Source: a virus (lineage: Duplodnaviria > Heunggongvirae > Uroviricota > Caudoviricetes). From it: DNA of 16,202 nucleotides. The position numbers and the translations under genes are program-made. Under the pieces are notes generated by a model, which had not been told where the DNA came from, did no database searches, and saw only the letters and a program-made list of their open reading frames with translations. Location of the stretch: the IMG/VR virus record IMGVR_UViG_2718218360_000018. One strand, 5' to 3'. This document shows positions 4,855 through 5,525 of this stretch, in pieces; position 1 is the first letter of the stretch, and each line of letters opens with the position of its first letter.

Positions 4855-5215
4855 GAAAGATCCACGTAAAAAGGAAGGTAACCATATGAAAGTTGCCTTG
4901 CTTGGGGAAGCCTGGGATATCGTCCAGCGACAACCAAAAAAATCAGAATTCATTTTTCCATATAACAGCACTTCTGTTACCGCAGGATTTCAGAGGGTAA
5001 GAAGCAAATTAGGTATTAAAGATCTGCGATATCATGATTTGCGTAGAGAAGGGGCAAGTCGCTTATTTGAGGCTGGTTTTAGTATTGAGGAAGTCGCTCA
5101 AGTTACAGGGCATCGTTCATTAAACGTGCTATGGCAGGTATATACCGAACTGTATCCGAAATCTTTACATAATCGTTTTGAAGAACTCCAAAAGAGCAGA
5201 AACAAGACCTCTTGA
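4855..5215 (+). pseudogene. Tyrosine integrase, C-terminal catalytic fragment (separated from 1668..2404 by the IS)
   Basis: Contains the tyrosine-recombinase catalytic signature (HDLRR, GHRS, QVY); in frame with the N-terminal fragment once the IS and one duplication copy are removed. ORF track reports it from the internal Met at 4886. Confidence 0.8.
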
Positions 5216-5261
5216 CACTGTTTATTTATACAGATAAAAATAACACTGTATACAAACACAG
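5212..5261 (+). promoter_or_regulatory. Promoter with two tandem LexA (SOS) boxes upstream of the dinI-like gene
   Basis: -35 TTGACA at 5212-5217; two CTGT-N8-ACAG boxes at 5218-5233 (CTGTttatttatACAG) and 5246-5261 (CTGTatacaaacACAG); RBS agaggg precedes ATG 5277. Confidence 0.6.
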
Positions 5262-5276
5262 TATAGAGGGATTTTT

Positions 5277-5525
5277 ATGCGTATTGAAATCTGCATAGCC
5301 AAAGAGAAAATGACTAAAATGCCAAACGGTGCTGTGGATGCGTTAAAGGAAGAATTAACTCGGCGCATCAGTAAGCGTTATGACGATGTAGAAGTGATCG
5401 TAAAAGCCACCAGCAATGATGGGCTTTCTGTTACACGCACTGCAGATAAGGATTCTGCAAAAACATTTGTTCAGGAGACTCTGAAAGATACCTGGGAATC
5501 TTCTGACGAGTGGTTTGTTCACTAA
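5277..5525 (+). CDS. DinI-family protein (DNA damage-inducible protein I-like)
   Basis: 82-aa [12 protein letters not shown]...[11 protein letters not shown], matching the DinI pattern (MRIE..IAK, DAL..EL.RRI, LSV, TWES.D.WFV); preceded by LexA boxes. Confidence 0.8.

Follow-up and report, generated by a model that had tools for sequence, protein, structure and literature searches.

The stretch of DNA analysed here, referred to as the window, is 16,202 nucleotides long and is recorded as a virus of the class Caudoviricetes (IMG/VR record IMGVR_UViG_2718218360_000018). It contains a small dinI-like gene preceded by two LexA boxes. This gene is very probably a stand-alone, SOS-controlled cargo gene of the DinI family, with two LexA operators on its core promoter, which resides in a decayed prophage of Escherichia coli O157:H7. 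Judged from the sequence, positions 5209-5628 of the window are a self-contained prophage cargo cassette, or moron, consisting of a sigma-70 promoter, two LexA operators, the DinI-family gene and a weakened terminator. The moron, a concept of Hendrix and co-workers, is an autonomous cargo unit of lambdoid phages, in which a promoter and a terminator of its own enclose a non-essential gene, and which one phage has and an otherwise related one lacks, with sharp borders. Comparison of the available copies shows that the cassette moves between unrelated phage contexts as one piece, from the promoter with its boxes to the gene and the 3' region. The finding is essentially already known: near-identical copies were annotated in this way in 2000, and LexA control of prophage dinI homologues has been proven in Salmonella. 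The coordinates of all features are collected in Table 1.

The promoter and its two LexA boxes

The promoter sequence from position 5210 is TCTTGACACTGTTTATTTATACAGATAAAAATAACACTGTATACAAACACAGTATAGAGGGATTTTTATG. An initial annotation of this DNA had placed two CTGT-N8-ACAG boxes at 5218-5233 and 5246-5261, immediately behind a perfect TTGACA -35 hexamer, and these features were found exactly as described. The hexamer agrees with the consensus at all six positions. The two boxes are the only exact CTGT-N8-ACAG matches in the 16.2 kb of the window, for which 0.17 matches would be expected. The promoter had also been called near-consensus, which is correct for the -35 hexamer but not for the -10 hexamer, where four of six positions agree. 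In the consensus scan TTGACA, an 18-nt spacer and AAAAAT gave 10 of 12 matches; TAAAAA behind a 17-nt spacer is an equally good candidate. Box 2 begins 3 bp past the -10 region, and transcription is predicted to start at about 5247-5250.

The boxes were scored with a heterology-index type of measure, using a symmetric count matrix built from 18 experimentally established boxes of E. coli K-12 (PMC3009722 Table 4). The scores were compared with leave-one-out scores of the same 18 boxes and with 200 first-order Markov shuffles of the window. The values are 7.25 for box 1 (5216-5235) and 6.56 for box 2 (5244-5263). The proven K-12 boxes range from 2.0 to 17.0 with a median of 7.3, and the best site per shuffle has a minimum of 7.86 and a median of 14.9 (n=200), so that both boxes are better than all shuffles. 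Scoring with a LexA matrix had been proposed as a check of the boxes, and they pass it: by this measure both are operator-grade, comparable to the boxes of recA, sulA or yebG. The only further site in the window that scores 15 or less, AACTGAAAATCCATCCAGTA at 6877-6896 (10.7), lies within the middle nleG gene and is probably a chance occurrence (5% of the shuffles reach 11.3 or less). As in promoters of the SOS regulon, the dinI-like promoter has operator-grade boxes that overlap or adjoin the predicted core promoter and are conserved in orthologous promoters.

For the comparison of promoters, 61 loci with sufficient upstream DNA, a set taken from viral contigs, were reduced to 31 distinct upstream sequences; a scan of a collection with one genome per species gave 4 loci. 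In 27 of the 31, both boxes are present and keep their distances from TTGACA and ATG. Among 22 distinct promoters that were aligned, the core letters CTGT and ACAG are constant except for one variant of different spacing; the central N8 of box 1 and the flanks vary. Such invariant cores with drifting centres are the pattern that would be expected of LexA sites. The -10 region is also kept in relatives. The distance between the box centres is mostly 28 bp, which is about 2.7 helical turns; the VT1-Sakai type has 29 bp, and a relative with 70% identity has 26 bp. Because the spacing varies over 26-29 bp and the helical phasing is not kept, two LexA dimers that bind independently are likelier than cooperative ones.

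The DinI-family protein

Membership in the DinI family, on which the initial annotation had made its reading depend, is borne out by alignment. The protein of 82 residues, which RefSeq names 'DinI-like family protein', matches Pfam PF06183 (DinI) over positions 1-63 of 63 of the profile with 67.2 bits against a cut-off of 24.2 (E = 1.6e-18). It matches PHROG 189, 'RecA filament binding protein DinI', over profile positions 71-149 of 151 (E = 9.5e-31). A phmmer comparison with the solved structures of DinI (1GHH and 7YWA) aligns residues 1-81 with 1-79, practically the full length (E = 2.2e-12). A structure model was made by AlphaFold (AF2) from single-sequence input and has a predicted local distance difference test value (pLDDT) of 74.9. 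The elements of the modelled fold follow the order beta-alpha-beta-beta-alpha. The two top Foldseek matches of this model are DinI structures with probability 1.00 and template modelling (TM) scores of 0.63-0.67, and all others have E >= 0.06.

The residues of DinI that contact RecA have been determined by cryo-electron microscopy and mutagenesis: a pocket formed by L13, L21, W71, W77 and F78 and an acidic patch of E24, E69 and D76 (PMC9926225). Their predicted counterparts in the dinI-like protein are M15, L23, W73, W79 and F80, and E26, D71 and E78, of which five are identical and three conservative. By this alignment the RecA-contact residues are conserved. The identity with K-12 DinI is 44.6% for the whole chain, and the score against the NCBIfam equivalog NF007893 for chromosomal DinI is 70.2 bits, below the cut-off of 111. 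It follows from these two values that the protein is a paralogue and not an orthologue of chromosomal DinI.

Borders and terminator of the cassette

Homology to unrelated phage contexts starts abruptly at 5209-5212 and ends at 5628. The contexts that share these borders include phage cdtI, VT1-Sakai beside attL in yehV, Shigella and several IMG/VR contigs. In contexts that lack int, the homology begins exactly at the TTGACA that supplies the TGA of the integrase in the window. This stop codon (5213-5215) falls within the -35 hexamer, in agreement with the initial annotation, which had put the promoter directly downstream of a disrupted int. Since the -35 hexamer of the cassette supplies the stop codon and the homology starts there, the cassette junction sets the C-terminus of the integrase.

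The 3' hairpins were compared by individual folds, as RNAalifold misaligned the terminator arms owing to indels. The hairpins of the relatives have -16 to -19.5 kcal/mol (z from -3.8 to -5.8) and are followed by T-runs. The hairpin of the window copy has only -9.2 kcal/mol with z = -0.3, and a simple terminator scan makes no call there. The stems differ among the relatives: CCGCAG/CTGCGG, CGCGGCA/TGCCGCG and GCCGCAGTA/TACTGCGGC. The comparison of 5594-5628 with loci L003, L007, L024 and L050 showed a terminator that is strong in relatives, with stems complementary though different, and degenerate in VT1-Sakai as in the window. The features of a moron are thus found as promoter, sharp borders and, in relatives, terminators, and the terminator is present only in part in the window copy. 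With this degenerate terminator, RNA polymerase that starts at the SOS promoter may continue antisense through the convergent nleG gene (5686-6327). An Rfam search of positions 5000-6000 gave only a sub-threshold match to CssrB, a small RNA of Shigella, on the minus strand at 5594-5732 (20.2 bits against a gathering score of 76, E = 0.13). This match was treated as a chance hit.

Occurrence in genomes and phages

Of 5426 complete E. coli genomes, 1775 have the cassette; the copy number goes up to 6 and is 3-4 in O157:H7. Promoter, both boxes and open reading frame (ORF) are intact and 100% identical across many O157 strains. By tblastn the protein is present in 133 phage records, mostly of Shiga toxin (Stx)-converting and other lambdoid phages. 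Its usual place in these records is the very end of the prophage, beside int/att.

Some copies are reduced. Loci L085-L092 (IMG/VR contigs) and the Stx2a-phage records H48 and H51-H56 have a truncated dinI-like remnant; in L085-L092 homology runs from 5307 (codon 11) onward, and promoter, both LexA boxes and start codon are gone. In phage BP-4795 (L009, 182-1908) the distal box is degenerate (…TACAAC) and the cassette homology goes no further than the stop codon of dinI. On the same strand, 155 bp downstream, lies the nleA-like effector gene ORF84, and no plus-strand terminator was detected. The SOS-controlled promoter of BP-4795 may read into this type-III effector gene.

Table 1. Features of the window, listed in the order of their positions.
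Feature	Position	Strand	Remarks
dusA	542-1579	-	Host gene, 5' end is the prophage integration site; RefSeq annotation, identical DNA in PV15-279 and C1-057
Tyrosine integrase, N-terminal part	1668-2408	+	Broken by ISEc8; matches to PHROG integrase families
ISEc8 (IS66 family) in int	2405-4846	+	Pfam HTH_Tnp_1, TnpB_IS66, DDE_Tnp_IS66; terminal inverted repeats
Integrase, C-terminal fragment	4886-5215	+	Pfam Phage_integrase, E = 6e-11
-35 hexamer TTGACA	5212-5217	+	6/6; the mobile cassette has its left border here as well
LexA box 1, distal operator, CACTGTTTATTTATACAGAT	5216-5235	+	Core 5218-5233; fills the -35/-10 spacer
-10 region TAAAAAT	5235-5241	+	A/T-rich; spacer to the -35 hexamer 17 nt (TAAAAA) or 18 nt (AAAAAT); 4/6
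LexA box 2, proximal operator, CACTGTATACAAACACAGTA	5244-5263	+	Core 5246-5261; covers the predicted transcription start
Shine-Dalgarno sequence AGAGGGA	5265-5271	+	5-7 nt ahead of ATG; kept in relatives
dinI-like gene, 82 residues	5277-5525	+	ATG 5277, stop TAA 5523-5525; product identical to RefSeq WP_001217541.1
3' region of the cassette	5526-5628	+	About 90% identical in other phage contexts; right border 5628
Terminator hairpin and T-run	5594-5624 and 5625-5628	+	Hairpin weakened in the window copy
Three tandem nleG type-III effector genes	5686-7689	-	Pfam T3SS_NleG, E = 1e-43 to 4e-47; outside the cassette

The prophage that carries the cassette

The gene had been described as island-borne. 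The 'island' is, by gene content and matching genomes, a degraded lambdoid prophage of E. coli O157:H7, integrated at the 5' end of dusA. The gene order is dusA, split integrase, dinI-like gene, three nleG genes, tail-fibre genes, lom, truncated J and pseudogenes. A displaced 5' fragment of dusA at 14780-14884 is the far end of the prophage remnant (1580-14884), which also keeps a PrtN-family gene. The nleG trio (213, 209 and 192 residues) separates the dinI cassette from the tail-fibre genes and is convergent with the dinI-like gene; RefSeq labels the three as DUF1076 proteins and nothing more. In the K-12 coordinates (L094, 4256000-4266000) a distance of only about 3.9 kb separates the 5' end of dusA from where lexA ends in the lexA-dinF operon. 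That a LexA-controlled prophage gene is a neighbour of lexA itself is probably a coincidence.

The disruption of int by ISEc8 is genuine, and the insertion has an 8-bp target duplication, AGAGATAG, at 2397-2404 and 4847-4854. The gene is intact (365 residues) in loci L001 and L002. The best match to the whole window is strain C1-057, in which int is uninterrupted and ISEc8 is located elsewhere (L002 9019-11460), between a DUF2303 fragment and yfdR, with the target duplication AAATATCT; the same site is empty in the window. Since the sites differ between the window and C1-057, the positions of the element are strain polymorphisms, and the two copies are independent insertions into the same prophage remnant. 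None of the complete RefSeq E. coli genomes listed matches the whole window at 100% in a single piece.

Comparison with known systems

The closest described system is H0001 (DinI) of VT1-Sakai / Sp15 (GenBank AP000400), which has the same cassette. Protein identity is 95%, and DNA identity over the stretch from the -35 hexamer through the terminator T-run is 89%, with the shared order TTGACA, box, -10, box and Shine-Dalgarno sequence. The record annotates a 'putative promoter of H0001 and H0002' and a 'LexA protein, putative SOS box', the latter being the homologue of box 2, and the distal box carries no annotation. This distal box has a CTGG half-site, and both VT1-Sakai boxes are weaker, with scores of 10.1 and 11.4. 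The VT1-Sakai copy lies beside attL in yehV and not after an integrase, and the small ORF H0002 comes next.

The chromosomal DinI of K-12 (b1061; 1GHH, 7YWA) shares the fold, the length, the RecA-contact residues and a LexA box near the start codon. However, it has 45% identity, a single LexA box at a different promoter, and is encoded by a gene of the core genome rather than by phage cargo. Tum of coliphage 186, which exists in a split version in PSP3 and Fels-2, is also LexA-repressed, and its C-terminal half is DinI-like (PMC3121763). It belongs to the same PHROG 189. The dinI-like protein covers positions 71-149 of this profile of 151 positions, and so it is without the antirepressor half.

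The dinI homologues of the Gifsy-1, -2 and -3 prophages of Salmonella have a LexA box ahead of the gene, are induced by mitomycin C and depend on a cleavable LexA, as seen with lexA3 (Lemire, Figueroa-Bossi and Bossi 2011, PMC3121763). They are included in the Salmonella SOS regulon list with one box each, 19 bp from ATG (PMC8072944), and respond to mitomycin C or nalidixic acid (PMC3121763; PMC8072944). The Gifsy dinI gene heads an operon with a small antirepressor gene, gfoA or gftA, followed by irsA (PMC3121763). The likeness to the cassette is a prophage-borne DinI homologue straight after a LexA box; induction by DNA damage independent of repressor cleavage is a feature of Gifsy. On the other hand, the DinI of Gifsy-2 is 42.5% identical, has one box and not two, is located in the nin region and has gftA and irsA downstream. 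A tblastn search of the window with GftA and IrsA of Gifsy-2 gave nothing credible, the best values being E = 0.027 (13987-14094) and E = 4.1.

The operators of lexA are about two helical turns apart, and colicin boxes overlap. With its two boxes, 28 bp apart here, the cassette resembles such SOS promoters with more than one operator. These include the promoters of lexA, recN and the colicin genes, and Salmonella dinI has boxes 19 and 42 bp from ATG (PMC8072944 Table 1). Literature searches found no direct experiment on the DinI-like clade of E. coli phages. A bioRxiv paper on radioresistant EDL933 and a ciprofloxacin transcriptome table contain chromosomal dinI only.

Proposed mechanism and alternative explanations

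The following mechanism is proposed. As long as the DNA is undamaged, LexA dimers of the host would occupy the two operators and keep RNA polymerase off the promoter, and this repression would need neither a phage repressor nor the dead integrase. On DNA damage, RecA filaments would trigger self-cleavage of LexA and the strong promoter would fire. The product would bind RecA filaments and join the pool formed by chromosomal DinI and the other 2-5 prophage copies, and a larger DinI pool would modulate the stability and the co-protease activity of the filaments. The gene would act as a stand-alone SOS gene and not as the head of an antirepressor operon. Tight SOS repression, and a tuning of RecA or of prophage induction by the window copy, as had been suggested initially, is plausible.

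Several points weigh against this reading. The -10 hexamer is weak, and each box by itself is mid-range among proven operators and not exceptional. Cooperative binding of LexA is unlikely, and the 'tight' repression would have to come from the position of the operators only. The terminator of the window copy is degenerate, and the host prophage is defunct, with a split int, a truncated tail gene J and many pseudogenes. Equal activity to chromosomal DinI should not be assumed, given the score below the equivalog cut-off. Non-polar deletions of the Gifsy dinI genes had no significant effect on prophage induction (PMC3121763). For the window copy, it is a prediction from the DNA that LexA binds, that transcription starts where proposed, that the gene is induced and that its product binds RecA.

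Some of these points would fit an SOS-regulated gene that is a physiologically redundant remnant and makes no measurable difference on top of chromosomal DinI and the remaining prophage copies. The decay of prophage and terminator, the Gifsy deletions and the 3-4 cassette copies in O157 genomes are all in its favour. Against it stand the intact promoter, boxes and ORF and their complete identity across many O157 strains, and the statistical association of a prophage DinI-like gene with the emergence of quinolone-resistance mutations in a comparison of E. coli pan-genomes (PMC10575684). Redundancy of this kind is possible though rather doubtful, and it would be compatible with a stand-alone SOS-controlled cassette. 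The weak hairpin and the missing scan call could also mean that the SOS promoter serves mainly for read-through into neighbouring cargo, antisense to nleG here and perhaps in the sense direction into the effector gene of BP-4795, so that DNA damage would be coupled to effector expression. The loss of the 3' region before the nleA-like gene of BP-4795 would agree with this. Nevertheless, most relatives have a strong terminator right after the gene, which makes insulation the ancestral design, and a main role in read-through is very unlikely.

The Gifsy prophages raise the question of whether the dinI-like gene is only the first gene of an operon under LexA control that serves chiefly to deliver a small antirepressor, which sets off prophage induction. 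The operon order in all three of them, and H0002 in VT1-Sakai, which has the same direction as H0001 and is annotated under the shared promoter, speak for such a module. The window has no credible GftA or IrsA match, the conserved cassette closes at the terminator T-run, the convergent nleG genes come next, and the gene is situated at the int/att end and not in the nin region. The sole ORF beyond the cassette, 5631-5801, was considered as an antirepressor and rejected, as it has no Pfam or PHROG match. A module of the Gifsy type is therefore extremely improbable here. Hardly any more credit can be given to the idea that the boxes are fortuitous A/T-rich palindromes or operators of another factor, and that LexA does not control the promoter. 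Two or more CTGT-N8-ACAG matches did arise in 3 of the 200 shuffles, somewhere in the 16 kb, but in the window both sites fall within 44 bp, on the core promoter straight upstream of a DinI-family gene. Both 20-mers outscore the best site of every shuffle, their cores are conserved with drifting centres, and the Salmonella homologues are LexA-dependent. The stand-alone SOS-controlled DinI-family cassette is the preferred reading.

Implications

DinI stabilises RecA filaments at stoichiometric levels, and in excess it inhibits UmuD cleavage and recombination (review PMC6590174). The phage DinI clade might be more than redundant, although we consider this unlikely. With 3-6 copies per enterohaemorrhagic E. 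coli (EHEC) genome of a high-output cassette under two operators, the total of DinI-type protein after SOS induction might be lifted above the stoichiometry of RecA and could act in trans as a brake or timer on the RecA co-protease. In that case even a dead prophage would alter the induction of Stx phages, SOS mutagenesis or quinolone tolerance. Less likely still would be SOS-driven read-through into effector genes.

To what was known, the analysis adds modestly that conservation across the clade extends to the distal operator, located in the spacer between the -35 and -10 hexamers; it carries no annotation in the VT1-Sakai record. The cassette also illustrates how a prophage that is itself defunct can keep a gene connected directly to the DNA-damage circuit of the host, with no need for a repressor or integrase of its own. 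Roughly one in three complete E. coli genomes carries the cassette, often in several copies. If the product truly alters RecA filaments, the copy number could influence the induction of Shiga-toxin phages and antibiotic-induced mutagenesis.

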